A stretch of 26,198 nucleotides of DNA from an uncultured Candidatus Saccharibacteria bacterium (GTDB lineage Bacteria > Patescibacteriota > Minisyncoccia > Phycocordibacterales > Phycocordibacteraceae), in contig CAYZDT010000001.1 in NCBI GenBank assembly GCA_964477415.1, positions 1 through 26,198 of the forward strand, written 5' to 3'. The notes below the pieces were generated by a model. That model was not told the DNA's origin and did no database searches. It was given only the letters and a program-made list of their open reading frames with translations. Shown in pieces: positions 1-19,831 of this stretch. The position numbers and the translations under genes were made by a program. Position 1 is the first letter of the stretch. Every line of letters begins with the position of its first letter.

Positions 1-2356
1 CGGCTTCACGGTCGTACAGCGACGGGTCGAACGAGTCGCCGCTGATGTTCGCCTCGACGTAAATATTCTTATACACAGGCTCAACCGAAGGAACGACCGA
101 GACGATATTTGAAGTCGATGCGGTCGGCGCAATCGCCATGCAGTTACTGTTTCTCATGCCGTACTTTTTGACCGCGTCTCTAACGGGAGTCCAATCCATG
201 GAAGTCGTCCGTGCGACGTCTATCTTTTCTCCGCGTTCTTCTTCAAGAAGCGCGATGGTATCCAAAGGAAGGAGTCCGCGGTCCCATTTCGAACCTTTGT
301 ACGATTCGTACGCGCCGCGCTCTTTCGCCAATTCCGCCGACGCGAGAATCGCGTAGTAGGAAATGACTTCCATCGATTCGTCGGCGAATTTCACGCACTC
401 TTCGGATGCGAAGTTGATGTTGAGCTGGTACAGCGCGTCCTGGAAACCGCCGGCGCCGAGGCCCACGGGACGATGGCGCATGTTAGAGTTTCTGCCTTCA
501 ATCGTCGGGTAGAAGTTCAGGTCGATCACGTTGTCGAGCATGCGCATGCCGACCGTGACCGTCTCTTTCACTTTCTCGCGGTCCCACTGGCCCGCAGTCA
601 CGTGAACCGCGAAGTTGACCCAGCCGAGGTTGCAGACCGCCGTTTCGTCTTTCGAGTTGTTCAGCGTAATTTCGGTGCAGAGGTTCGAGTTGTGGACGAC
701 ACCGACATGGTCCTGCGGAGAACGGACGTTCGAGGGATCTTTGAACGTAATCCACGGATGGCCTGTTTCGTACAGCATCGCAAGCATCTTCTTCCACAAA
801 TCCATCGCTTTTATGCGGCGGAACATTTTTATCTTGCCTTCGTCCGCGGCCTTTTCGTATGCAGCGTACGCCTCTTCGAACTTCTTGCCGTAAATGTGGT
901 GCAAGTCCGGAGTCTCGTCCGGCGAGAACAGCGTCCACTGGCCGTCCTCCCTCACCCGCTTCATAAAGAGGTCCGGAATCCAGTTGGCGGTGTTCATGTC
1001 GTGGGTGCGGCGGCGCTCGTCTCCCGTGTTTTTACGCAGTTCAAGGAAGTCCTCGACGTCGTAGTGCCACGTTTCAAGGTAGACGGCGGTAGCCCCGCGG
1101 CGGCGACCGGAACGGTTGATGGCGACCGTAACGTCGTTTGCGATTTTCAGGAACGGAATCACGCCCTGGCTTGTTATGCCCGCCTTTTTGATAACCGCGC
1201 CCGTACCGCGGATATTGGTCCAATCGGTGCCGATGCCGCCGGCCCACTTGGACATCTGGGCGTTGTCGCCGTAGACCTTGAAGATGTTGTCCAGATCGTC
1301 GTCGACGGTATTGAGGTAACAGGAAGAAAGCTGCGCGCGCACTAGGCCCGAGTGGAACAACGTAGGCGTCGAAGGCACGAAGCGCAAAGTCGAGAGCATT
1401 TCATAGAAACGAATCGCCCACGCTTCGCGGTTTTCTTTTTCCTGAAGCGCAAGCCCCATCGCGACGCGCATATAAAGGAGCTGCGGCGTTTCCAAAGGTT
1501 TCTTTTCCTTTCCGCTTCTGTCCTGAATGAAGTAGCGGTCCGACAAGGTCGCGACGCCCATGTATTTCAACAATCGATCGCGCTCCGGACGCAGCGCGGA
1601 CGCGAGTTTCTGCAAATCAAAATTAATCATGCGCTCGTCCAAGACTTTCAAAGCAACCGCGCGCTTCACGTTCTCGACGAAGCCCGCACGGTACGCGGCG
1701 TCGAAATCGGCTGACACAATCGTGAGTCCGTCTTTGTTGAACGCGCGCGCATACAGAGAATTCAACAGAAGCTGCGCCGCAAGCTGGTTGTATGCGGGAT
1801 CGCGTTCAATCATCGAACGCACCACCATGATGAGCGTGCGCTCGATTTCGCCAGTCGTGATGCCGTCATACACTTCGCGCTCCACTTGGCGCACAATGCC
1901 GTCGATATCGATTGCGTTTTTGTATTCCGGAAGTATCGAATACTCAAGAGTCTTTCTCAGTTTTTCCGTCGAAAATATTTCCCGCTCGCCGTTCGCGCGC
2001 ATAATAAGGAGCGAACGGTCTTCAATCTTCTTTACTACCTCCTCCTGCTTCTCTTCGCGTATCTTCGCGTGTTCGTAGCGGTAAATAATGTACGACTTCG
2101 CGACGTCATAGAAGCCGCGCTGCATCAGAGAGTGTTCAACCAAGTCCTGCACCTCTTCAACCGAGGGAATCGCCGCCGTTCCGCCGTACTTCAGGCTGAT
2201 TGCGCCGATGACCGCCGCTCCGATTTCTTTCGATTCCTCCTCCTTGGCGTCATTCAGAACGTCAAGAAACGCTTTGGACACTGCCGAGGTTATTTTTGCC
2301 TCGTTGAAATCAACGATAGTGCCGTTTCGTTTCTTGATTTTCTGAAGTGTCGTCAT
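1..2356 (-). CDS. nrdA: Ribonucleoside-diphosphate reductase class Ia alpha subunit, two N-terminal ATP-cones; 3' end truncated by window edge
   Basis: Manual translation from ATG at 2356, open to the window edge: MTTLQKIKKRNGTIVDFNEAKITSAVSKAF (ATP-cone 1), IMRANGEREIFSTEKL (cone 2), PSTPTLFHSG, QLSSCYL, GRRRGATAVYLETWH, HNSNLCTEITL (N-x-C-x-E catalytic motif), TAVCNLG, MAIAPTAS. Not in the ORF track because it has no stop in the window. Confidence 0.96.
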   Translation of the reverse strand, partial: MTTLQKIKKRNGTIVDFNEAKITSAVSKAFLDVLNDAKEEESKEIGAAVIGAISLKYGGTAAIPSVEEVQDLVEHSLMQRGFYDVAKSYIIYRYEHAKIREEKQEEVVKKIEDRSLLIMRANGEREIFSTEKLRKTLEYSILPEYKNAIDIDGIVRQVEREVYDGITTGEIERTLIMVVRSMIERDPAYNQLAAQLLLNSLYARAFNKDGLTIVSADFDAAYRAGFVENVKRAVALKVLDERMINFDLQKLASALRPERDRLLKYMGVATLSDRYFIQDRSGKEKKPLETPQLLYMRVAMGLALQEKENREAWAIRFYEMLSTLRFVPSTPTLFHSGLVRAQLSSCYLNTVDDDLDNIFKVYGDNAQMSKWAGGIGTDWTNIRGTGAVIKKAGITSQGVIPFLKIANDVTVAINRSGRRRGATAVYLETWHYDVEDFLELRKNTGDERRRTHDMNTANWIPDLFMKRVREDGQWTLFSPDETPDLHHIYGKKFEEAYAAYEKAADEGKIKMFRRIKAMDLWKKMLAMLYETGHPWITFKDPSNVRSPQDHVGVVHNSNLCTEITLNNSKDETAVCNLGWVNFAVHVTAGQWDREKVKETVTVGMRMLDNVIDLNFYPTIEGRNSNMRHRPVGLGAGGFQDALYQLNINFASEECVKFADESMEVISYYAILASAELAKERGAYESYKGSKWDRGLLPLDTIALLEEERGEKIDVARTTSMDWTPVRDAVKKYGMRNSNCMAIAPTASTSNIVSVVPSVEPVYKNIYVEANISGDSFDPSLYDREA

Positions 2357-2700
2357 GGTCGGTTATATGGATCGCGTTATGCGACGATTAAGGGCGGATA
2401 ATTGATTGATAATCGTTGGGAATCGTTCGTCTCTGTTTCGCGTCGTTCGTCCTTTCGTATGAGTCTTTGAGTTGGAAGGTTATTCTAACTCTTTGAACGG
2501 ATGCGGATAGGAAAAAATCGAGAAAGTCGCCTGTGGAAAAAAGAGAATGCAATAAAAAAGAGCACTGTCAACGTCGTACGGAAACGAGCGCGAACTTCCC
2601 TGCTGTGAGAGGAAAGCTTTGTTGAAAAAAAATCTACAGGCGAATACCGATTTTCAGTTTTGAAACGAAAAAAACGGAACGCAAGAGCGGGCAGCGCGCA

Positions 2701-3660
2701 TCAGAGGCCGCCCGCTTCGGCGCCGGAGGAGTATCCGGCCGCGTCCGCCGCTTCGGCCAGCGAAAGACGCGAAAGAAACGCCGCCTGCAATGCGGGAATG
2801 TTTTCTTCAGCGCCTTTCCATGCCTGCATCGCGGGAATATGAAGGCTCTGGGAGAATGCAAACGAGATCGGCCACGAAAACGGCTCCAAACGGGAAAGCG
2901 CGTTCAAATACGAAGCGGCTTCTGCGGGTTCTAGAAGGTCGTCCGCGAGCATGACGCCTCCCAGAACCTGAGGCAACGACGATGAGAGAGCGCGGAGCGT
3001 GCGTTCGGCGACTTCGGAAGGTTTCGCGCGGAGCGGATTCAACAGCCCGGTGGCGGCGAACGTGCTTCGTATAATGATTCCTTTCAAATCAAGAGCGCCC
3101 GACTCAAGTCCGTCTGACAAAAGCGAAAGAAGTTCAACGAGAGCATCCTCTGCCTGCCCCGATGTGTGCGATCCGTCGGCGCGGACCTCAACGGAGATAA
3201 CGGGGACCGCGGAAAATTCCGCACACGCTTTTGCAAACGCAACAGCGGCCGTAATCCGATCCTTCAATGCGGCGTAGGCAGACTGCTGATTCGCTTCCCT
3301 CACAATGCGCGTGAGCGCGAATACCGCGCCCATCGAACGGAGCTCTGAAAGAAGCGAACGCGTATCTTCGTCTTCGCGCACAGAAACTCCGATGAGTATA
3401 TTTTTTTCTGAAAGAAGTTCGTGATACGGCATTCCATCCATTCCCGACGCGCGCAGCGCATCCGGCGAGAGCACGACGCCGGAAAGAAAACGTTCCGCGC
3501 CTTCAGTTGATAAAAGAGCGTCGCGAAACTTCTGCAGAGCGTTTTCCGTTTCGCATCCGCGCGCGGAAAGTTCCGCGGAAAGTTCCGCATCGGCGCGGTC
3601 GAAAATAAAAATTCCTCTTCCGTCTTTTATGAGCGAACGCGCTGTCTCGTTCTGGTTCAT
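2701..3660 (-). CDS. Class I fructose-bisphosphate aldolase-like protein with degenerate active site (probable pseudoenzyme)
   Basis: Colinear with the class I FBA consensus: GRGIFIFDR~GKGILAADE, FLSGVVL~YISGVIL, VPVISVEV~VPIVEPEV, WPISFAFSQSL~WPLTFSYGRAL, AWKGAEEN. Start placed at ATG 3660 (MNQNETARSL) because the 3696 start lies in a terminator hairpin and TGC-TATAGT sits 7 nt upstream of 3660. Confidence 0.8.
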   Translation of the reverse strand: MNQNETARSLIKDGRGIFIFDRADAELSAELSARGCETENALQKFRDALLSTEGAERFLSGVVLSPDALRASGMDGMPYHELLSEKNILIGVSVREDEDTRSLLSELRSMGAVFALTRIVREANQQSAYAALKDRITAAVAFAKACAEFSAVPVISVEVRADGSHTSGQAEDALVELLSLLSDGLESGALDLKGIIIRSTFAATGLLNPLRAKPSEVAERTLRALSSSLPQVLGGVMLADDLLEPAEAASYLNALSRLEPFSWPISFAFSQSLHIPAMQAWKGAEENIPALQAAFLSRLSLAEAADAAGYSSGAEAGGL

Positions 3661-3675
3661 GGCTTTCACTATAGC

Positions 3676-3703
3676 AAAAAGAAAAACGCTCACCATGAGC
3701 GTT
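3676..3703 (-). terminator. Intrinsic terminator-like hairpin
   Basis: Minus strand reads AACGCTC-ATGGT-GAGCGTT followed by TTTCTTTTT; lies downstream of the small ORF 3766-3939. Confidence 0.6.
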
Positions 3704-3714
3704 CATCCCCTGCC

Positions 3715-3749
3715 GGCATACCCCGATAAAAACAACAAAGGGGTATGCC
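3715..3749. repeat. Perfect 10-bp inverted repeat with 15-nt A-rich spacer
   Basis: GGCATACCCC (3715-3724) / GGGGTATGCC (3740-3749). Confidence 0.85.
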
Positions 3750-3765
3750 GTGTACTATGTTCTGA

Positions 3766-3939
3766 TTACCTGCGCTTAGCGTCTGACTTCTTGGCGAAAC
3801 TCTCGCCCCACGCAACCATTGCGCTGTAGAAATCAGCTCCAAACGGCTTCGGATTTGCGTGCGCTTCCTGCGCCGCCGTTATGCGCCGTTTGAGCGCGGC
3901 CAAATCGTCTCCTTTCTCAAGTGAACTGTTTATAGACAT
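3766..3939 (-). CDS. Small hypothetical protein, 57 aa
   Basis: Manual translation MSINSSLEKGDDLAALKRRITAAQEAHANPKPFGADFYSAMVAWGESFAKKSDAKRR*. Fills an otherwise empty gap and is followed by a hairpin and terminator; below the ORF-track length cut-off. Confidence 0.55.
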   Translation of the reverse strand: MSINSSLEKGDDLAALKRRITAAQEAHANPKPFGADFYSAMVAWGESFAKKSDAKRR

Positions 3940-4096: not shown

Positions 4097-4474
4097 CTAG
4101 AGAAGGCTCGATTTGTACCGTTCGGGCTCGTGTGCCCCCACGTATTCGATTCTGATGCCGAACTGCTTCAAATCGGGTTCCAGGGCCTGCTGATCGTATC
4201 CGAGAAATAGTACGTCCGGCTTCGTCTCCAAGACTATCTTCCACGAACCTGTGCGCTCGTCCCCTTTGACCACAGTGAGCGCCTGATTCCACTCGCACAA
4301 TGCGCGCATGCGTTCCTCCAAGTTCTGTTTCGGTTTTTTCCCTTTCAATAATTCCACAACCGCATCGGGAGCTACCGCAACGGTCAAATCATCACACTTT
4401 GATTCGGCCTCGCTTAAAAAATGCTTATGGCCTTCATGAAGAAAATCGAAAACGCCGAAGAGAAGCCCTTTCAT
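4097..4474 (-). CDS. Cytidylyltransferase-family nucleotidyltransferase (RibL FAD synthase / TagD-like)
   Basis: FGVFDFLHEGH (HxGH motif), LTVAVAPD, KPDVLFLGYDQ; ATGA overlap with the upstream peptidase. Confidence 0.85.
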   Translation of the reverse strand: MKGLLFGVFDFLHEGHKHFLSEAESKCDDLTVAVAPDAVVELLKGKKPKQNLEERMRALCEWNQALTVVKGDERTGSWKIVLETKPDVLFLGYDQQALEPDLKQFGIRIEYVGAHEPERYKSSLL

Positions 4475-5577
4475 AGCGAGAGATACGGAGCGCGGGTCAG
4501 CCGTTTCGCGCCGCCGCGGGTTACGACAACATCGTCTTCAATGCGTATCCCGCCGATATTTGCAATATAAATACCGGGCTCGTTCGACAACACCGTACCC
4601 GCCTGAAACGGATCTTTCGTGTAATCGTACGGATCATGCACATCGAGGCCGATTGAGTGCCCTAAGCCGTGAGTAAAATATTTCCCGTATCCTTTCGCCG
4701 TGAGGTAATCTCGTGCAGCAGCATCATACTTTTTCCATGTAATGCCGGGCTTGAGAATGCGAAATGCTTTTTTGTTCGCGGCGAGAGCGGCGCGATACAT
4801 GCCGGCCAGCTTTGCACTTGGTTTTTTGCCAGGCACGAAAATAGTGCGCGTCAAATCCGAACAGTATCCGCCCGGAAATACTCCGCCAAAATCAAGGACG
4901 ACGGGTTCGCCTGCGCGCACTTTTCGCACGCCCGTTTCATGATGAGGAATTGCTGAATGTTTCCCCGAGGCGACGATTGTTTTGAAACTGGGAGCCAGAG
5001 CGCCGCGCTTTAAATGCTCAATATCAAGCATCATCGCAATTTCCGATTCGCGCATCCCCTCTCGTATACGTTTTGAAACCGCAACAAACACATCGCTCGT
5101 TATTTTCGCGGCGCGCGCAAGGTTCTTCAACTCTTCCGCGTCTTTTATCTGCCGCATCGACTCGACGATGCCTTCGGTCGGGATAAGGCGTACGGGAAGC
5201 CGCTTCTTCCATGCTTTCAGCGCGGCGACGCTGACGCGTCCGGATTCAAATCCGATTCGCGCGCCTTTCTTAAGATTGAGCGCTCCGAGCGCGGTTTCTG
5301 CGTATGCAGAGAGTGCGGGACCGCGCACCATGCCCTTCGGAAGCTCAATGACGCGTGCGCCGCTCACCTCGTCCATTGCGCGCAAGGTATATCTCGCATC
5401 TACCGCAAGCGCAGCCCCTTTCATGCCGACCGCCAACACCCCCGTCGTACCCCCGAAACCGCTCATATAATAGGGGTTTTTGCTGCTCTCCTCGTCGGTT
5501 GCGAGGAGAATACCGTCAAGCGTGCGGGCTTTGAGAAGCGCGCGGAGGCGGGCCTGTCGTGCCTTGAAATTGAACAT
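4471..5577 (-). CDS. Xaa-Pro aminopeptidase/dipeptidase (M24B family)
   Basis: N-terminal creatinase-like domain, MRQIKDAEEL, IPHH, LDFGG..GYCSDLTRT, FTHGLGHSIGLDVHD, NEPGIY, GIRIEDDVVVT metal ligands. Confidence 0.93.
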   Translation of the reverse strand: MFNFKARQARLRALLKARTLDGILLATDEESSKNPYYMSGFGGTTGVLAVGMKGAALAVDARYTLRAMDEVSGARVIELPKGMVRGPALSAYAETALGALNLKKGARIGFESGRVSVAALKAWKKRLPVRLIPTEGIVESMRQIKDAEELKNLARAAKITSDVFVAVSKRIREGMRESEIAMMLDIEHLKRGALAPSFKTIVASGKHSAIPHHETGVRKVRAGEPVVLDFGGVFPGGYCSDLTRTIFVPGKKPSAKLAGMYRAALAANKKAFRILKPGITWKKYDAAARDYLTAKGYGKYFTHGLGHSIGLDVHDPYDYTKDPFQAGTVLSNEPGIYIANIGGIRIEDDVVVTRGGAKRLTRAPYLSL

Positions 5578-5581
5578 GATG

Positions 5582-6268
5582 CTACCAAGATACGCCGAGC
5601 CGCTTCAACTCCGCAACTAGCGCGGCTGCGTCGGTAAAAAGAATGCCTTTCATACCCGCACCGTGCGCGCCGTCGACGTTTTTTTGTCTGTCGTCGACCA
5701 TAACGGCTTCGGACGGAAGGATGCCGAGCATGGTGCACATAGTCTTGTAAATCTGCGGTTCAGGCTTCAGCATTTTATGCTCGGACGATATCAGGACTTC
5801 GTCGAACAAATCCCACGCATTGTGTTCCGCTATCACGTTCCGCAGATGCGACGAGGCGTTCGAGAGAAGCCCGATTTTATAGCGGGATTTGAGCGCACGC
5901 ACCAAAGACACGACGTCTTCGTTCAGCCTGCGCGCGTCTTTCATTTCTTGAATAACCTGAGGTGCGGTCTGGCCCGCTTCGCGCGCAAGCGCCGAAATAA
6001 GTTCTTCCTCCGCGTGTTCGCCGCGGTTTTCCCTGTCTATAAGATTCTGAAAATAATCTTTCCGATCCTCTATATCGGGAATATGGCGCCTCAGCCATTC
6101 CCAATACGCTTCGTGCGATATAACGCCGCCCCAATCGAATACGAGCGCGGAAATGCGGGATGACGCAGGCGCGGAAGTTTTTACCCGCATAAGAAAAAGC
6201 AGCGCGATATATATGTTCAGTACGACAAGCGCTGCGACGCCGCCGAATAAAATCGCGTAATCCGCCAT
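5582..6268 (-). CDS. HAD-superfamily hydrolase (subfamily IA, YihX-like) with N-terminal transmembrane helix
   Basis: VFDWGGV (motif I), LLSN (II), MLKPEPQIY (III), VMVDDRQKNVDGA (IV). Start at ATG 6268, with TATACT 6 nt upstream. Confidence 0.88.
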   Translation of the reverse strand: MADYAILFGGVAALVVLNIYIALLFLMRVKTSAPASSRISALVFDWGGVISHEAYWEWLRRHIPDIEDRKDYFQNLIDRENRGEHAEEELISALAREAGQTAPQVIQEMKDARRLNEDVVSLVRALKSRYKIGLLSNASSHLRNVIAEHNAWDLFDEVLISSEHKMLKPEPQIYKTMCTMLGILPSEAVMVDDRQKNVDGAHGAGMKGILFTDAAALVAELKRLGVSW

Positions 6269-6289
6269 GCGCGCAGTATACAAAAACTT

Positions 6290-6964
6290 TTAAGGCGCCG
6301 CGTCGGTAAAATCAGAATCGATCAGGCCTTTGAATTCGTCCGAATCGGCGCGAATTCCGGACTCGGCAAGACGCGCAGAGACGGCCGCAACGAACCCTCG
6401 CGAACCTGCTACATAAAAACGTGCGGACGGTACATTGCGTATTGCCGCATCTAACGCGCCGAAAAGCTCGGCGCGCCCTACGGCGGCGTATTCGTCCGCA
6501 AGCGGGAGGAGTTCGTCTTTATATATAAAGGCATGCGAGCTGACGTGAATGACGCGCACGCGTCCGCCTATCTTCTTTTGCGCTCGGTCGAGAAGCATCG
6601 AGCGAAACGGCGTAATGCCTACCCCGCCCGCAATCATTACCGAGTTATTCTCCGGCGCGGGCCAGGTCATATGCCCTTTTATTTTAAATAGAATTGCCGT
6701 ATCGCCTTCCCGCATTTCGGCAAGACGTTTTTGGTACGCGCTACCCGAGCGCATGTCTATTCCGAAACGTATGTACTCTTCATGGGGCGCCGACGCAAAA
6801 GAAAATTCGCGTACTGCGCGCGCCTCTGGCGGCAGGCCTAAAAGGCGGAGGTGGCCGTATTGACCCGCCGAGTATGATATCGGATGCTCGGAGCGGAATA
6901 GGAACGTGGACACGCCGTCGCCTTCATCTGCTACGGCGGTAAGCGTGAGTATGTCTTCAGGCAT
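6290..6964 (-). CDS. Ferredoxin-NADP reductase-like FAD/NAD(P)-binding oxidoreductase
   Basis: AGQY, REFSFASAP (RxYS-like FAD motif), MIAGGVGITPFRSML (NAD-binding). True start inferred at ATG 6964 (TGG-TATACT 9 nt upstream); the 462-aa track ORF extends into non-coding and antisense sequence. Confidence 0.88.
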   Translation of the reverse strand: MPEDILTLTAVADEGDGVSTFLFRSEHPISYSAGQYGHLRLLGLPPEARAVREFSFASAPHEEYIRFGIDMRSGSAYQKRLAEMREGDTAILFKIKGHMTWPAPENNSVMIAGGVGITPFRSMLLDRAQKKIGGRVRVIHVSSHAFIYKDELLPLADEYAAVGRAELFGALDAAIRNVPSARFYVAGSRGFVAAVSARLAESGIRADSDEFKGLIDSDFTDAAP

Positions 6965-7243
6965 GGGTTCATCAGTATACCAATGCAGAAAACTGAATTG
7001 TGAAAAACGCAGGTTGACATTTACACCGCGAAGACGCACCCTGAATTCTGGCTTCAGGATATCGATTGCACTGAAGCATTTTTTCGGAAACGGCGAGAGT
7101 ATCGGATCGGCACTGAGAAGCAATCGCACCGAAGTCGGAACGCGCATTCGCGTCAAGATATCTTTAGTCGGTAAGTTTTTCGGAAAAGAAGAAAGCGCGT
7201 GGCACGCTTTTCGGGAATATTCCCCTTCCGCTCCGACGGACCG

Positions 7244-8620
7244 ATGGCAACCCAAAAAGAGAACGAAGACAAGAACGGAAAAACTCCGCAGAAGAAATTC
7301 ACCATAGGTTTTGAAACCGAGTTTTTTGTTATTGACGCGGCAGGAAAACCTGCAGCCGGAGGAGAAGTCATATACAAAAAAGCGGCCGAAGCGGGGGCAA
7401 AAGAGAATGCGATTACGCGCGAATGCGCGAATAACCTTATTGAAGCCGGCAGCTACCCGAATGTTGAGGGTCAGAACACGATGAAAAGCCTTTTGGACGG
7501 ACTCAAATTGCTTCTCTATGCGGCAAAGGAAAGCGGGTACGGAATAGTACCTTTGGGAACCTATCCGGGAAAGTTTACGCCGGATATGAGAAAAGAAGCC
7601 CGTTACAAAGTGCAATCCAAGCTCTTTGGTAAGACGCGTTTTCAAATTGCAGGCAGAGTGGCCGGCTATCACTGCCATTACGCCTTGCCGTGGGGCGTCT
7701 TTGACGCGAAAACTCTCACGCTGAAACAGCTTACCGATTCAAAGAATCAGGAACATCTGGTTTCGGCGTTTAACTTCCTCATCGCCATAGATCCGGTATT
7801 GACGACGTTTATGCAGTCCTCTCCCTTCTATCAAGGGCGGCATTTTGCAAAAGACACCCGAATGCTCGTATACCGCGGCGGCGAAGACGTAGGTTACCCG
7901 AAAGGTCTCTATGCGAATCTGCCGACATTCGGCAGTCTTCCAGCATACGTGCATGCGGGAGCGGATCTTATCAGTCGTATTGAAGACAGAAACAAACTAT
8001 GGCTTGAGACGCTCTCTAACGCGGGCGTACGCACGAAGCCCGAGTACCGCTCCATACTCGACACAAACTGGTGCCCGGTTAAAGTAAATGCCCACGGTAC
8101 GTTTGAACAGCGCGGCATGGACATGAACCGGCTTCCGATACTCTTTTCGGTTTCCGTTCTCATACAGACTCTTATGAAACGGATTCAGGACGGAGAATAC
8201 CGTGTCGTTCCCCACGATTCGGGCAAAAATCAGCCCTTCTCGCTCGACGAAAAAGAAAAGATTATTTATATCGCCCCCGACACGTACGTCCGTAAGACAC
8301 TCCAGAAACGTTCCGCCTACGATGGACTTGCGAATGATGAGATATATAACTACTGCCGCAGGCTGGTACTTTTGGTCAAACAACTTGAAGGCGAAAAGAT
8401 ATTCCAGCTTCTTGATCCCGTTACCCAGATGCTCGCGGAGCGGAAAACGCAATCGGATACTATACTTGCGCAGGCAAAATCCCTCGGATACAAAGATCGT
8501 CGCAAAGTGCTTCCGCCCTCCATTGCCGCAGAAATCGCTCTCACACACGCGAAACAAATGTTCGAAGACATCGTCATCCTCGAAAAGATGATCGAGGTAA
8601 ACGCCGCTCTTTCGAAATAG
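7244..8620 (+). CDS. Glutamate-cysteine ligase family 2 (GCS2/YbdK-like carboxylate-amine ligase)
   Basis: FTIGFETEFFVID (~TxGxEEE), GYHCHY (~GxHxH), SSPFYQG, HGTFEQRGMD (~GTxExRxxD). Start inferred at ATG 7244. Confidence 0.8.
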   Translation: MATQKENEDKNGKTPQKKFTIGFETEFFVIDAAGKPAAGGEVIYKKAAEAGAKENAITRECANNLIEAGSYPNVEGQNTMKSLLDGLKLLLYAAKESGYGIVPLGTYPGKFTPDMRKEARYKVQSKLFGKTRFQIAGRVAGYHCHYALPWGVFDAKTLTLKQLTDSKNQEHLVSAFNFLIAIDPVLTTFMQSSPFYQGRHFAKDTRMLVYRGGEDVGYPKGLYANLPTFGSLPAYVHAGADLISRIEDRNKLWLETLSNAGVRTKPEYRSILDTNWCPVKVNAHGTFEQRGMDMNRLPILFSVSVLIQTLMKRIQDGEYRVVPHDSGKNQPFSLDEKEKIIYIAPDTYVRKTLQKRSAYDGLANDEIYNYCRRLVLLVKQLEGEKIFQLLDPVTQMLAERKTQSDTILAQAKSLGYKDRRKVLPPSIAAEIALTHAKQMFEDIVILEKMIEVNAALSK

Positions 8621-9358
8621 CTACTGCGCCTTTATAAAGTTCAGAGCGCCCCCGCGGTCCATATAGACGAGCGAAAGTTCTTCGGGCGTGAGCTTGGCGA
8701 GCTTGAACGTAAGCGGATTTCCCGTGTCGCCCGCAAACGTTGCGCGGATATACACGGCGTCTGCTTCGTACGGTATCAAAGCGTCCGGCGCGTTATCGCC
8801 CGCAAAAACCGTCCACCCGCCTTCCGCCTGGATTTTGCCGCCGTAATAATCGACGAGGCGGCCGCCGGATTCGAATTCGCGCGCGAATTTCTCGTCGTCG
8901 GTGCTTACCCATCTGCCGAGTATGCTTTCAGAGACAATAAGAGAGACGTCCTGCTTTACTCCGCCGCCTTCTCCCGCGTCTCCCCAATTCCACGGAGCCA
9001 TGTCCGTGCTCGGCACGGGATTACAAATGAGCGTTTTCCCGTTTACATCGAGGCGTACTTCCTCTCCCGCACCCGTCATGACGATTCCATTTCCTTCAAA
9101 GCGCGCGCCCGTCAAAGACTCTACATGCATAAGCGTTCCTTCCGCGGCAATCGGCTTCAATCCAAGAGGGCTCAAAACGACCTTGGCGAGGTCTGGGGCG
9201 GGCGTCATCGAAAATGAGGAACCGTTATCGCACGCATACCCGTACGAGTCGGGTGCGGAACCTGCCGACTGATTCGGCATGTATTCGGCGGTAAACCACC
9301 ACGCGCCTATAATGACGAGTCCTATAAAACCCGCAATCCACGTGTATGCGCTTTTCAT
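8621..9358 (-). CDS. Membrane-anchored protein with divergent MliC/PliC-like domain plus a C-terminal beta domain
   Basis: N-terminal TM helix; YACDNGSSF...TLMHVESLTGARFEGNG...GEEVRL...TLICNP resembles MliC (YxC..SASGARY..KGxEAxL..C); second domain LGRWVSTDD... Confidence 0.6.
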   Translation of the reverse strand: MKSAYTWIAGFIGLVIIGAWWFTAEYMPNQSAGSAPDSYGYACDNGSSFSMTPAPDLAKVVLSPLGLKPIAAEGTLMHVESLTGARFEGNGIVMTGAGEEVRLDVNGKTLICNPVPSTDMAPWNWGDAGEGGGVKQDVSLIVSESILGRWVSTDDEKFAREFESGGRLVDYYGGKIQAEGGWTVFAGDNAPDALIPYEADAVYIRATFAGDTGNPLTFKLAKLTPEELSLVYMDRGGALNFIKAQ

Positions 9359-9393
9359 ATACTATCGAGTATACCCTTTTTCAGGGGACGCGT

Positions 9394-9867
9394 TCAGTTC
9401 AAAAGATACAGCGTGTAATTCAGATACGAGGCGAAAGAAACCCACGCCAGATACGGAACCATGAGCCACGCGGCCGTTTTCGAAACTTTCAACATTGACG
9501 CTATGGTCGCGGCAATCGCAAGCCACATAAGTCCAATTATGACGAGCGCGGCGCCGATGTCGTGAAGTCCGAAAAAAACAGGACTCCAAATCGCGTTCAA
9601 AGCAAGCTGAATTCCGAATAAGACAAAGGCGGTTTTTGCGCCGCGCACGTTTCTTTTGCGCCATATAAGAAACGCCGCAACGCCCATGAGAGCGTATATA
9701 GCGGTCCACACCGGGGCAAAGAGCCAGTTCGGCGGCGAAAAATCAGGACGTACTAAAGACGCGTACCATGTTGGAATAGAATCGGCGGTAAAAACCGAGC
9801 CGATAAGCCCGACTGCCTCGCAGAGGATAACGAAGAGGGCGGCAACGCCGATGTCTTTTTGTTTCAT
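9394..9867 (-). CDS. tspO: TspO/MBR tryptophan-rich sensory protein
   Basis: WYASLVRPDFSPPNWLFAPVWTAIY, QLALNAIWSPVFFG, LMVPYLAWVSFASYLN; five TM segments. Confidence 0.93.
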   Translation of the reverse strand: MKQKDIGVAALFVILCEAVGLIGSVFTADSIPTWYASLVRPDFSPPNWLFAPVWTAIYALMGVAAFLIWRKRNVRGAKTAFVLFGIQLALNAIWSPVFFGLHDIGAALVIIGLMWLAIAATIASMLKVSKTAAWLMVPYLAWVSFASYLNYTLYLLN

Positions 9868-9887
9868 ATTGGAATTATACCCTCGCC

Positions 9888-10200: not shown

Positions 10201-10740
10201 TTAAATAGAACGGAACTGGACGTTCGCGGGAGGCGTAAACATCGACGCATCTACCGCGGCAGGTTCGCAGTTATACGAATAGCTGACGTCAGGGTTGAAT
10301 CCGTATCCCGACGCATCGCCTGCGCCCGAACCTTCCGCCGTTACTTTCGCTTTAAAACCCTGCAGCATTACCGACGACCACGAGTAGATATATTCGCCGT
10401 CCGAAACCATGTACGCGCTCACGTTGCCGAGAGACGGAACGTCAATTGAAAAGTCCCCTTTCAATTTCTTTCCCGAGACATACACCGTGCCCGAGGAAAA
10501 CGCCACGCCTGCGCCGGTACTCGCCTGGCTTCCGATATCGCACTTCCAGTCTCCGCCGCGCGCCATAAGATCGTGCACGGAACCTTTGAATTCGCCCGCC
10601 TCTGCTTTCATCATTTCGCCTCCTTCTTCGTTCTTCATCGAATCGCCCGGCGCGGCGGAATTAGAATTCATGTAAAAATACGCGCCGCCGCCTATGACGA
10701 CGACCGCGGCCAAAATGCCGAGAGCAAGTTTTGTATTCAT
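10201..10740 (-). CDS. Membrane-anchored extracytoplasmic hypothetical protein
   Basis: N-terminal TM helix, two Cys (WKC, YNC), beta-rich core GTVYVSGKKLKGDF..MVSDGEYIYSW, ends SMFTPPANVQF; TATAAT 8 nt upstream of the ATG. Confidence 0.75.
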   Translation of the reverse strand: MNTKLALGILAAVVVIGGGAYFYMNSNSAAPGDSMKNEEGGEMMKAEAGEFKGSVHDLMARGGDWKCDIGSQASTGAGVAFSSGTVYVSGKKLKGDFSIDVPSLGNVSAYMVSDGEYIYSWSSVMLQGFKAKVTAEGSGAGDASGYGFNPDVSYSYNCEPAAVDASMFTPPANVQFRSI

Positions 10741-10768
10741 ATGGAGAAATTATACCGCGGCAAAAACG

Positions 10769-11188
10769 CTATTCGACGGGGACGGCTGTGCAGCCGAGAT
10801 AAGATTTTTCTTCGTTATTCTCTAGAACGAGTGCTTCGTCCCCCTTCGACCAGAATACGAACGTTTCGCCACCTTCAATCAGTGGGTCGCCGTCGGAGTA
10901 TCTGACTCCGCTTGCCGAAAGAGTCTGCTTCAACGTCATTGCGCGTCCGTCTGAGAGAACAAGATCGACCGTACTCTGCGGGACGGGCGGTTCGCCTTCT
11001 GCGGCAGGAGGCAGGGGCTCGGCGTTATGAAATACGGCCGCTATTGATTTGCCGTCATTGCAGGCATATTCGACGGAAACTGTATTTGCTTCTTTAACGG
11101 GGGCTTCAGCGAACTGATGGCCGGACAATAGCCAAACCGCCGCAAGGATAACAGCAAGGACGGCTATGCCCACGAGAGTGTTCTTCAT
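10769..11188 (-). CDS. MliC/PliC-family lysozyme inhibitor domain protein
   Basis: Signal/TM helix; VEYACNDGKSI, TLKQTLSASGVRYSDG, FVFWSKGDEALV, terminal Cys (canonical MliC motifs). Confidence 0.85.
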   Translation of the reverse strand: MKNTLVGIAVLAVILAAVWLLSGHQFAEAPVKEANTVSVEYACNDGKSIAAVFHNAEPLPPAAEGEPPVPQSTVDLVLSDGRAMTLKQTLSASGVRYSDGDPLIEGGETFVFWSKGDEALVLENNEEKSYLGCTAVPVE

Positions 11189-11235
11189 ATGCGTACATTA
11201 TACCGATTCGCTTCGCGGAAAGGCGCGAGATTTTA

Positions 11236-19736: not shown

Positions 19737-19793
19737 TTAAAAAAATACACCCGCCGTGGGTGTTTTTATTTTTTTAATAACCGCGGAGGTCAT
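19737..19793 (-). CDS. Putative leaderless leader peptide MTSAVIKKIKTPTAGVFF (18 aa) spanning the pyrE-upstream terminator
   Basis: ATG 9 nt after the -10 box; the frame runs through both hairpins and ends in TTT TTT TAA at the U-tract. Confidence 0.5.
   Translation of the reverse strand: MTSAVIKKIKTPTAGVFF
19739..19767 (-). terminator. Terminator/attenuator hairpin upstream of pyrE
   Basis: Minus strand ACACCC-ACGGC-GGGTGT-A-TTTTTTT, ending 23 nt before the pyrE ATG. Confidence 0.75.
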
Positions 19794-19802
19794 TAAAGCC
19801 TT

Positions 19803-19831
19803 AGTATAGGGGGTCTTCGTTCCGTTGTCAA
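19803..19831 (-). promoter_or_regulatory. Sigma70-type promoter of the pyrE operon
   Basis: TTGACA (19831-19826) - 17 nt - TATACT (19808-19803). Confidence 0.85.

Follow-up and report, generated by a model that had tools for sequence, protein, structure and literature searches.

A class I fructose-bisphosphate aldolase homologue of Saccharibacteria that has lost its catalytic lysines and is probably maintained as a pseudoenzyme

The locus described here raises the question of why a gene derived from a glycolytic enzyme should be kept intact when the residues that make it an enzyme have been replaced. The gene codes for a homologue of class I fructose-bisphosphate aldolase (FBA) and lies in a stretch of 26,198 nucleotides from an uncultured Candidatus Saccharibacteria bacterium (contig CAYZDT010000001.1 of assembly GCA_964477415.1), the whole of which was analysed and is referred to below as the window. 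An earlier note, made from this DNA without database searches, had proposed the gene product as a candidate pseudoenzyme, and the residue losses, the intact fold, the purifying selection and the intact orthologues reported below agree with that proposal. We consider it probable, on the strength of sequence comparisons, that the gene is an orthologue of the FBA gene of Saccharibacteria and other Candidate Phyla Radiation (CPR) bacteria, that aldolase catalysis has been lost, and that purifying selection keeps the product as a folded, expressed and non-catalytic protein (i.e. a pseudoenzyme). The coding sequence (CDS) in question is the following.

2701–3660, minus strand: class I FBA-like CDS, 319 amino acids (aa) plus stop; stop codon at 2701–2703

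The homology of the encoded protein to class I aldolases extends over its whole length. The Pfam profile PF00274 matches residues 5–313 (E = 1.2e-38), and the earlier description of the 319 aa open reading frame (ORF) as intact and full length is borne out by this match. The best sequence match in the PDB is 3mbd (E = 1e-28), the top matches among solved structures being class I FBAs, and an AlphaFold2 model made from a 20-sequence alignment (pLDDT 87.6, pTM 0.88) is an eight-stranded barrel that superposes on solved class I FBAs with TM scores of 0.89–0.91. Against the NCBIfam equivalog for class I FBA (NF033379) the window protein scores 145.5 bits, which is under the curated cut-off of 250 bits; the canonical FBAs of CPR bacteria score 388–418 bits (406–418 bits for those of loci L003 and L004; L and P numbers are our labels for loci and protein sequences), and all of the degenerate types distinguished below score 145–232 bits. 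The correspondence of residues, in the numbering of human ALDOA (sequence verified against PDB 6xmh), was obtained from three agreeing alignments (viz. a HMMER pairwise alignment and two MAFFT alignments) and is given below.

D33: D21 in the window protein; kept
K107, phosphate-binding residue: S93 (GVSVR); lost
D109: R95 (GVSVR); lost
K146, catalytic residue: L116 (FALTR); lost
R148: R118 (FALTR); kept
E187, general acid: S156 (ISVEV); lost
E189: E158 (ISVEV); kept
K229, the Schiff-base residue at the end of strand 6: R198 (IIIRSTF); lost
S271-G272-G273: D240-D241-L242; lost, L270-S271-G272-G273 having become A-D-D-L (LADDL)
S300-Y301-G302-R303: A268-F269-S270-Q271 (FAFSQ); lost
Further changes: E34 to R, S35 to A, K41 to A and R42 to E

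All of the replacements given in the earlier note agree with this mapping, as do the D33 and R148 that it listed as retained, and the losses of catalytic residues are hence confirmed. Comparison with class I FBA by profile, sequence and fold, which was one of the checks that the note had put forward, places Arg at the Schiff-base position. Because there is no Lys at position 229 and no other conserved Lys at the top of the barrel, and because the phosphate sites are lost, the protein, as judged from its sequence, cannot perform Schiff-base aldol chemistry, in accordance with what the note had claimed. As regards membership in class I FBA (EC 4.1.2.13), the barrel homology is present, and K229, K146 and E187, the phosphate-binding residues (K107, S271-G272 and R303, and also S35, K41 and R42) and a score of 250 bits are all missing.

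These losses extend to related proteins. The note had dealt with a single candidate; its pseudoenzyme reading stands, but the window protein is one tip of a larger Saccharibacteria/Patescibacteria clade that contains three subtypes. Among 5.8 billion proteins, clustered at 90% identity, only ~20 clusters are close relatives. An exhaustive HMMER search yielded 1387 matches, and in an alignment of 166 sequences from the best of these matches all seven core residues are present in 108 sequences, with nearly all of the ~20 nearest clusters lacking K229. In a fast neighbor-joining (NJ) tree with 500 bootstraps the degenerate sequences form one clade (bootstrap 100%) inside a CPR clade (bootstrap 100%), and they are divided as follows.

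Window type (NJ bootstrap 93%): the window protein, P0002, P0004–P0009 and P0012; keeps D33, R148 (lost in P0009) and an acidic residue (Glu/Asp) at 189; K107, K146, E187, K229 and in most members R303 (kept in three) are changed, with variation between subgroups
K-type (NJ bootstrap 99%): P0010, P0013 and P0161–P0167; keeps D33, R148, E187, K229, S271 and G272; E107, G109, E146, D189 and N303 are fixed
E-type (NJ bootstrap 81%): P0014, P0015, P0017, P0018, P0024 and L005; keeps K146; G187 and E229 are fixed

The window type and the K-type are sisters (NJ bootstrap 95%). The K-type sits within the clade and still has K229, so that at least two losses of this residue must have taken place in the clade; P0019, whose grouping is with the canonical FBA P0016, has lost it in a further event. 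No active-site positions other than K107 and G273 are changed in every member of the degenerate clade, and we infer that their change is a candidate for the first event. The pocket of the K-type (found at locus L001, 8001–8993) is strictly conserved and charge-inverted, T302 joining the fixed residues listed above in an acidic pocket, and from these residues the K-type may be an enzyme that acts through a Schiff base on a new substrate, either non-phosphorylated or cationic. Locus L005 (10001–10957) carries the E-type. A scan that covered a single genome of each species placed the relatives in metagenome-assembled genomes (MAGs) labelled Candidatus Saccharibacteria (L004, L005 and L006) or Kaiserbacteria (L003), and two relatives are labelled 'Patescibacteria group bacterium' by NCBI.

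K229 is also missing in P0151, P0082, P0137, P0152, P0140, P0075 and P0041, which are class I FBA homologues unrelated to this clade. Three of these look animal ALDO-like and three look high-GC bacterial; among the animal-like ones, P0151 repeats the L146/S187/R229 pattern of the window protein, and in P0137 a multi-pass membrane region is fused to the aldolase part. Dead enzymes derived from aldolases may have arisen several times.

Whether the gene is the FBA gene of its lineage or a spare copy can be judged from its surroundings, of which the following features are relevant.

1–2356, minus strand: class I ribonucleotide reductase (RNR) large subunit, running off the window; downstream neighbour of canonical and degenerate CPR FBA genes and the synteny anchor
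3668–3676, minus strand (3676–3668): extended -10 box TGCTATAGT, exactly 7 nt upstream of ATG 3660
3675–3704, minus strand: terminator-like hairpin (3704–3684) and T-run that ends the upstream transcription unit; overlaps the alternative ATG 3696
3714–3750, minus strand: conserved hairpin CGGCATACCCC-loop-GGGGTATGCCG, found upstream of canonical and degenerate FBA genes at 8 loci
4097–4474, minus strand: cytidylyltransferase-like gene, an upstream neighbour conserved in degenerate-FBA loci
4471–5577, minus strand: M24 Xaa-Pro aminopeptidase gene, likewise a conserved upstream neighbour in degenerate-FBA loci

Loci L003 and L004 carry canonical FBAs (with the motifs ILAADES, GIKVDQG, FAKWR, IIEPE, ILKTSM, LSGGQ and FSFARAL), and their FBA genes lie directly upstream of the class I RNR gene, as is the case in the window and in the degenerate loci. 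The window RNR is 77–83% identical to those of L003–L005, the identity of the FBA-like proteins at these loci being 38–42%, and a locus from a Saccharibacteria MAG (L006) has the same order as the window (viz. HAD / M24 peptidase / cytidylyltransferase-like / FBA-like). In canonical and degenerate loci alike, the conserved hairpin is followed by the terminator hairpin and then by the -10 box, and a TGnTATAGT box is present at the identical distance of 7 nt before the orthologous start in L001, L002, L005, L006, L008, L011 and L013. Because the RNR adjacency, the upstream hairpins and the -10 box all match those of canonical loci, the window gene corresponds by position to the canonical CPR FBA gene and is its orthologue, not a spare paralogue. 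The class I aldolase homology in the earlier note is thus upheld, with the refinement that the gene occupies the ancestral FBA locus. A second FBA was looked for and not found in the 26 kb of the window and in the flanking DNA of nine related loci (up to 10 kb on each side), and the gene neighbourhoods of the window and the related loci gave no indication of a new pathway. The motifs HTAxQAED, EVAERTxRA, RxEPxxWP (RLEPxxWP) and FLxRLSL (FLSRLSL) and the ADAAGY...E tail are common to canonical CPR FBAs, and the proposal that family-specific motifs indicate a new function was rejected because most of the motifs are already present in canonical CPR FBAs.

The FBA-like gene is under purifying selection. 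For the window and L007, which are the closest pair with DNA (79% aa identity), dN is 0.125, dS is 1.03 and dN/dS is 0.12 (bootstrap confidence interval (CI) 0.08–0.17), and three further pairs, in which dS is saturated, give dN/dS values of 0.07–0.14. The full-length orthologues at 39–80% identity are all intact and contain no stops, and the comparison of dN/dS across orthologues that the earlier note had suggested thus speaks for its proposal. Strain-level single-nucleotide polymorphisms (SNPs) in metatranscriptome contigs comprise 15 synonymous and 4 nonsynonymous changes. Each of the 14 population variants recovered from many metagenomes is of full length; their 13 variable sites do not include any former catalytic position, and because these variants carry identical residues there, the replaced residues are not sequencing noise.

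Under this selection the gene has nevertheless diverged more than its surroundings. Identity between the window and L007 is 79% for the FBA-like protein, 93% for a small ORF upstream of it and 99% for the RNR N-terminus, and the conservation of the FBA-like gene is below that of the M24 peptidase in 14 of 15 genome pairs and below that of the CTP-transferase-like gene in every pair. The mean distance to non-CPR FBAs is 1.64, as compared to 0.92 for canonical CPR FBAs (~1.6–1.8 times further). A mosaic, recombinant or hypervariable gene was rejected as the cause of the divergence from L007, identity being evenly low (~77%) across the CDS, with no blocks.

Conservation in an enzyme is normally highest at the active site, and the canonical FBAs conform to this, their mean entropy being 0.28 at 22 active-site positions versus 1.74 in the rest of the protein. 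The corresponding values are 1.23 versus 1.03 in the window type and 0.51 versus 0.75 in the K-type. This comparison shows that the window-type pocket has been freed from constraint and has ceased to be the best-conserved region. Between the window-type subgroups, position 229 varies among R, G and A, position 146 among L, V, Y and M, position 187 among S, G and A, and position 303 among Q, E, R, C, H and D.

The gene also appears to be expressed from a start site of its own. Contigs from four wastewater metatranscriptome runs cover the whole FBA-like gene at depths similar to those of the flanking genes, which supports, without proving, its transcription, and the conserved promoter adds weight. 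The runs that hold the sequence are from wastewater, activated sludge, bioreactor and aquatic metagenomes, and this provenance, the labels of the relatives and the gene order shared with L006 make a Saccharibacteria-like CPR bacterium the most likely source of the window. The earlier note had credited the gene with an extended -10 box of its own, which is present as listed above, and its position 7 nt before ATG 3660 implies a leaderless or nearly leaderless mRNA, with the tandem hairpins lying outside of that mRNA. The longest ORF of the gene, which is also the choice of the gene callers, begins at ATG 3696 (331 aa). This start was rejected because it lies inside the terminator hairpin, because the equivalent of the Met at ATG 3660 is the start in most full-length orthologues (at 39–51% identity), and because of the distance of the -10 box from ATG 3660.

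In the window protein, homology to an enzyme is hence combined with loss of the catalytic residues, purifying selection, intact diverged orthologues and probable expression, a combination that favours a maintained pseudoenzyme. Such a protein could have arisen if the aldolase reaction became dispensable in the ancestor of the degenerate clade. After the change of K107 and G273, the remaining catalytic residues would have been lost independently in different lineages, and a second, non-catalytic job would have been preserved, carried by the conserved non-pocket surfaces and by the C-terminal tail shared with canonical CPR FBAs. A plausible job would be a protein–protein or other macromolecular interaction, or an oligomeric scaffold, and a former moonlighting function may in this way have outlived catalysis; the candidate roles put forward in the note were a scaffold, ligand or RNA binding, or a regulatory subunit of an active paralogue. 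In the window subgroup, R198 may, together with D240 and D241, fill the former phosphate site internally.

Several points weigh against this interpretation. The term non-catalytic is a deduction from sequence. The conserved pockets of the K- and E-types indicate that the lineage may have moved to a new chemistry or ligand, of which the window type may retain some, and the pocket of the P0004–P0008 subgroup is itself fairly constant (Y146, G187, D189 and G/A229). The conserved non-pocket surfaces could simply serve folding. NJ trees can falsely cluster fast-evolving sequences, which is a caveat for the degenerate clade, and dS is near saturation in all pairs but one. The metatranscriptome data consist of assembled unstranded contigs, in which carry-over of DNA is possible. 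A broader proposal, that one entire lineage within the Saccharibacteria turned its only FBA gene into a selected non-catalytic protein and that the K-type is a new Schiff-base enzyme with a charge-inverted pocket, is accordingly held more tentatively, and we rate its chances as somewhat below even.

The alternative that deserves most attention is that the barrel has been neofunctionalised, the old cleft (D21, R118, E158, R198, D240 and D241) now serving an enzyme that works without a Schiff base, or a specific small-molecule binder, with a substrate that is not a sugar bisphosphate. It draws on the K-type, in which K229, E187 and D33 are kept in a strictly conserved, charge-inverted pocket of lower entropy than the rest of the protein, on the fixed E229/G187/K146 set of the E-type, and on the retention almost throughout of D33 and R148, with an acidic residue at 189, under strong selection. 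However, the window-type pocket differs between subgroups and is more variable than the protein average, the reverse of what an active site normally shows, and the gene neighbourhoods contain no hint of a new pathway; hence we regard this alternative as possible and worth keeping in view, though unlikely. That an active FBA is encoded elsewhere in the genome and has the window protein as a regulatory or hetero-oligomeric subunit, along the lines suggested in the note, is improbable. Class I FBAs are oligomeric, dead paralogues often regulate live ones, and the conserved helix 167–187 could be an interface, but the gene sits at the ancestral FBA locus, which makes it a former FBA gene and not a duplicate, and no second FBA was seen in the window or in the flanks of the nine related loci.

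Two further explanations have very little in their favour. A recent pseudogene, decaying neutrally with its frame still open, would account for the faster evolution of the gene relative to its neighbours and for the vanished constraint on the active site, but it is at odds with the upper bound of 0.17 on dN/dS in the closest pair and with the ratio of synonymous to nonsynonymous SNPs, as well as with full-length ORFs that remain intact across lineages at 39–50% identity, a confidently folded model and a conserved promoter, and we consider it very improbable. That the protein still is an FBP aldolase, with its Schiff-base lysine relocated, is hardly credible. Catalytic lysines on different strands are established within the class I aldolase superfamily (e.g. 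transaldolase versus FBA), but the only Lys residues that are invariant in the window type are K133, in a helix, and K193, in the DLKG motif at the N-terminal end (i.e. the bottom) of strand 6. Neither of these is at the barrel top, and both also occur in the K-type alongside its retained K229, so that both were rejected as relocated Schiff-base lysines; the residues that bind phosphate have been lost as well.

The intergenic regions on either side of the gene contain a number of further features, which are as follows.

2357–2700: spacer of 345 nt from the FBA-like stop to the RNR start
2668–2718, minus strand: hairpin that overlaps the stop codon of the FBA-like gene and is followed by a U-run; possibly the terminator of this gene, with weak support (z -1.7)
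3766–3939, minus strand: small ORF of 57 aa between the cytidylyltransferase-like and FBA-like genes; 93% identical in L007
4082–4055: strong sigma-70-like promoter match TTGACA-16-TATTAT, upstream of the small ORF

The ~400-nt gap upstream of the FBA-like gene is taken up by the small ORF and the tandem hairpins, both of which the -10 box places outside the FBA-like mRNA, and a search of it for a riboswitch or leader RNA gave no Rfam match at the gathering threshold or at E<=1. The stem of the conserved hairpin is GGCATRCCCC...GGGGYATGCC with a loop of variable length; compensatory changes are seen in 5 of its 11 pairs, and the window copy has an RNA fold z-score of -5.96. The tandem hairpins (in the window, L001–L005, L007 and L008) stay with the FBA gene even though the gene upstream differs, being TspO in L004 and the small ORF in the window. 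This small ORF has no Pfam match, and its dN/dS relative to L007 is about 0.09; ORFs of 56–69 aa are called at the same position in L001, L002, L009 and L010, those of the last three sharing only a weak motif. Parts of the spacer 2357–2700 are 92–97% identical to L007, as compared to ~77% for the FBA-like CDS, which suggests a conserved RNR leader or regulatory region; the spacer has no Rfam match.

Leaderless-type starts may be normal in this genome. TATANT boxes 5–9 nt before an ATG occur 8 times in the window, versus 1.05 expected, and mostly at ORF starts, and this excess suggests that leaderless mRNAs are common in the source genome. The sites, all on the minus strand, are listed here.

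3658–3673: TATANT before ATG
6266–6280: TATANT before ATG
6962–6979: TATANT before ATG
9356–9373: TATANT before ATG
9865–9879: TATANT before ATG
10738–10754: TATANT before ATG
11186–11202: TATANT before ATG
19791–19808: TATANT before ATG

The positions of these boxes also suggest that two other ORFs are shorter than called, viz. the HAD hydrolase, with a true start at ATG 6268 and not at TTG 6283, and the NAD_binding_1 ORF, with a true start at ATG 6964 and not at 7678.

Two observations concern the contigs themselves. L003 (JAHFMJ010000039.1, labelled Kaiserbacteria) is a 3-kb contig whose RNR is 81% identical to that of the window and whose FBA is 68% identical to that of L004; either a piece of Saccharibacteria DNA may have been binned wrongly with a Kaiserbacteria MAG, or the locus may have undergone transfer. 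At the contig edge of the window (1–60, minus strand) the end of the RNR frame, NISGDSFDPSLYDREA, departs from the well-conserved L004 sequence, NISGDFTVVNPYLVEDL; this C-terminal divergence is probably due to an indel or an assembly error.

In comparison with known systems, the closest is the canonical class I FBA of CPR bacteria (L004, CAYHYY010000009; L003, JAHFMJ010000039; PF00274, NF033379), with which the window protein and its gene share the fold, length, motifs, position upstream of RNR, hairpins and -10 box. The canonical protein keeps D33, K107, D109, K146, R148, E187, E189, K229, SGG and R303, whereas the window protein has only D33, R148 and E189 of these. The FBA of TM7x has been treated as active (PMC12815258). 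The K-type proteins (e.g. MBY0539131.1 and MBX9765280.1, both named 'fructose-bisphosphate aldolase [Patescibacteria group bacterium]') are the sister group, at 39–44% identity; they have also lost K107, K146 and R303, and their synteny matches that of the window in the one locus fetched (L001, carrying P0010). They differ in having the Schiff-base K229 with E187, D33 and a conserved acidic pocket, so that they may still be enzymes, whereas in the window type the Schiff-base Lys is missing and the pocket varies. Moonlighting aldolases, such as that bridging the apicomplexan TRAP tail and actin (PDB 2pc4, 2eph and 4tr9) and rabbit aldolase with a WASP peptide (2ot0), share the fold (TM about 0.9) and bind protein by a cleft or surface independently of catalysis, yet they are fully active enzymes; the window protein lacks the catalytic machinery, and the comparison does not imply an actin-like system. 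The aldolase domain of adducin, which is class II aldolase-like, non-catalytic and binds actin (PMC12599920), offers an earlier case of an aldolase fold that serves in interaction and not in catalysis, but its fold is that of the unrelated, metal-dependent class II, and it is a single domain within a larger, eukaryotic protein. The earlier note knew of no described bacterial family of this kind, and in the searchable literature we likewise found neither a class I FBA pseudoenzyme family nor degenerate CPR FBAs described.

These results bear on how the metabolism of these bacteria is read from their genomes. JGI names the window protein and near-identical members of its cluster 'fructose-bisphosphate aldolase class I', and NCBI names the K-type FBA; because metabolic reconstructions rely on annotation that names degenerate proteins in this way, the aldolase step is probably over-called in reconstructions of CPR and Saccharibacteria metabolism. 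If the broader proposal above is true, the degenerate proteins would include the first pseudoenzyme family in bacteria to have descended from class I FBA, and reconstructions that score the aldolase step in these organisms would be wrong. The canonical FBAs, the K-type and the fully degenerate type, together with the independent E-type, would provide a natural series for the passage from an enzyme to a pseudoenzyme or to a new enzyme. The genomes of CPR bacteria are very small and are assumed to be prone to losing unneeded DNA. Hence, a dead aldolase that is kept at an omega (dN/dS) of about 0.1 suggests that a glycolytic protein has, in these episymbiotic bacteria, a role outside metabolism that has gone unrecognised.

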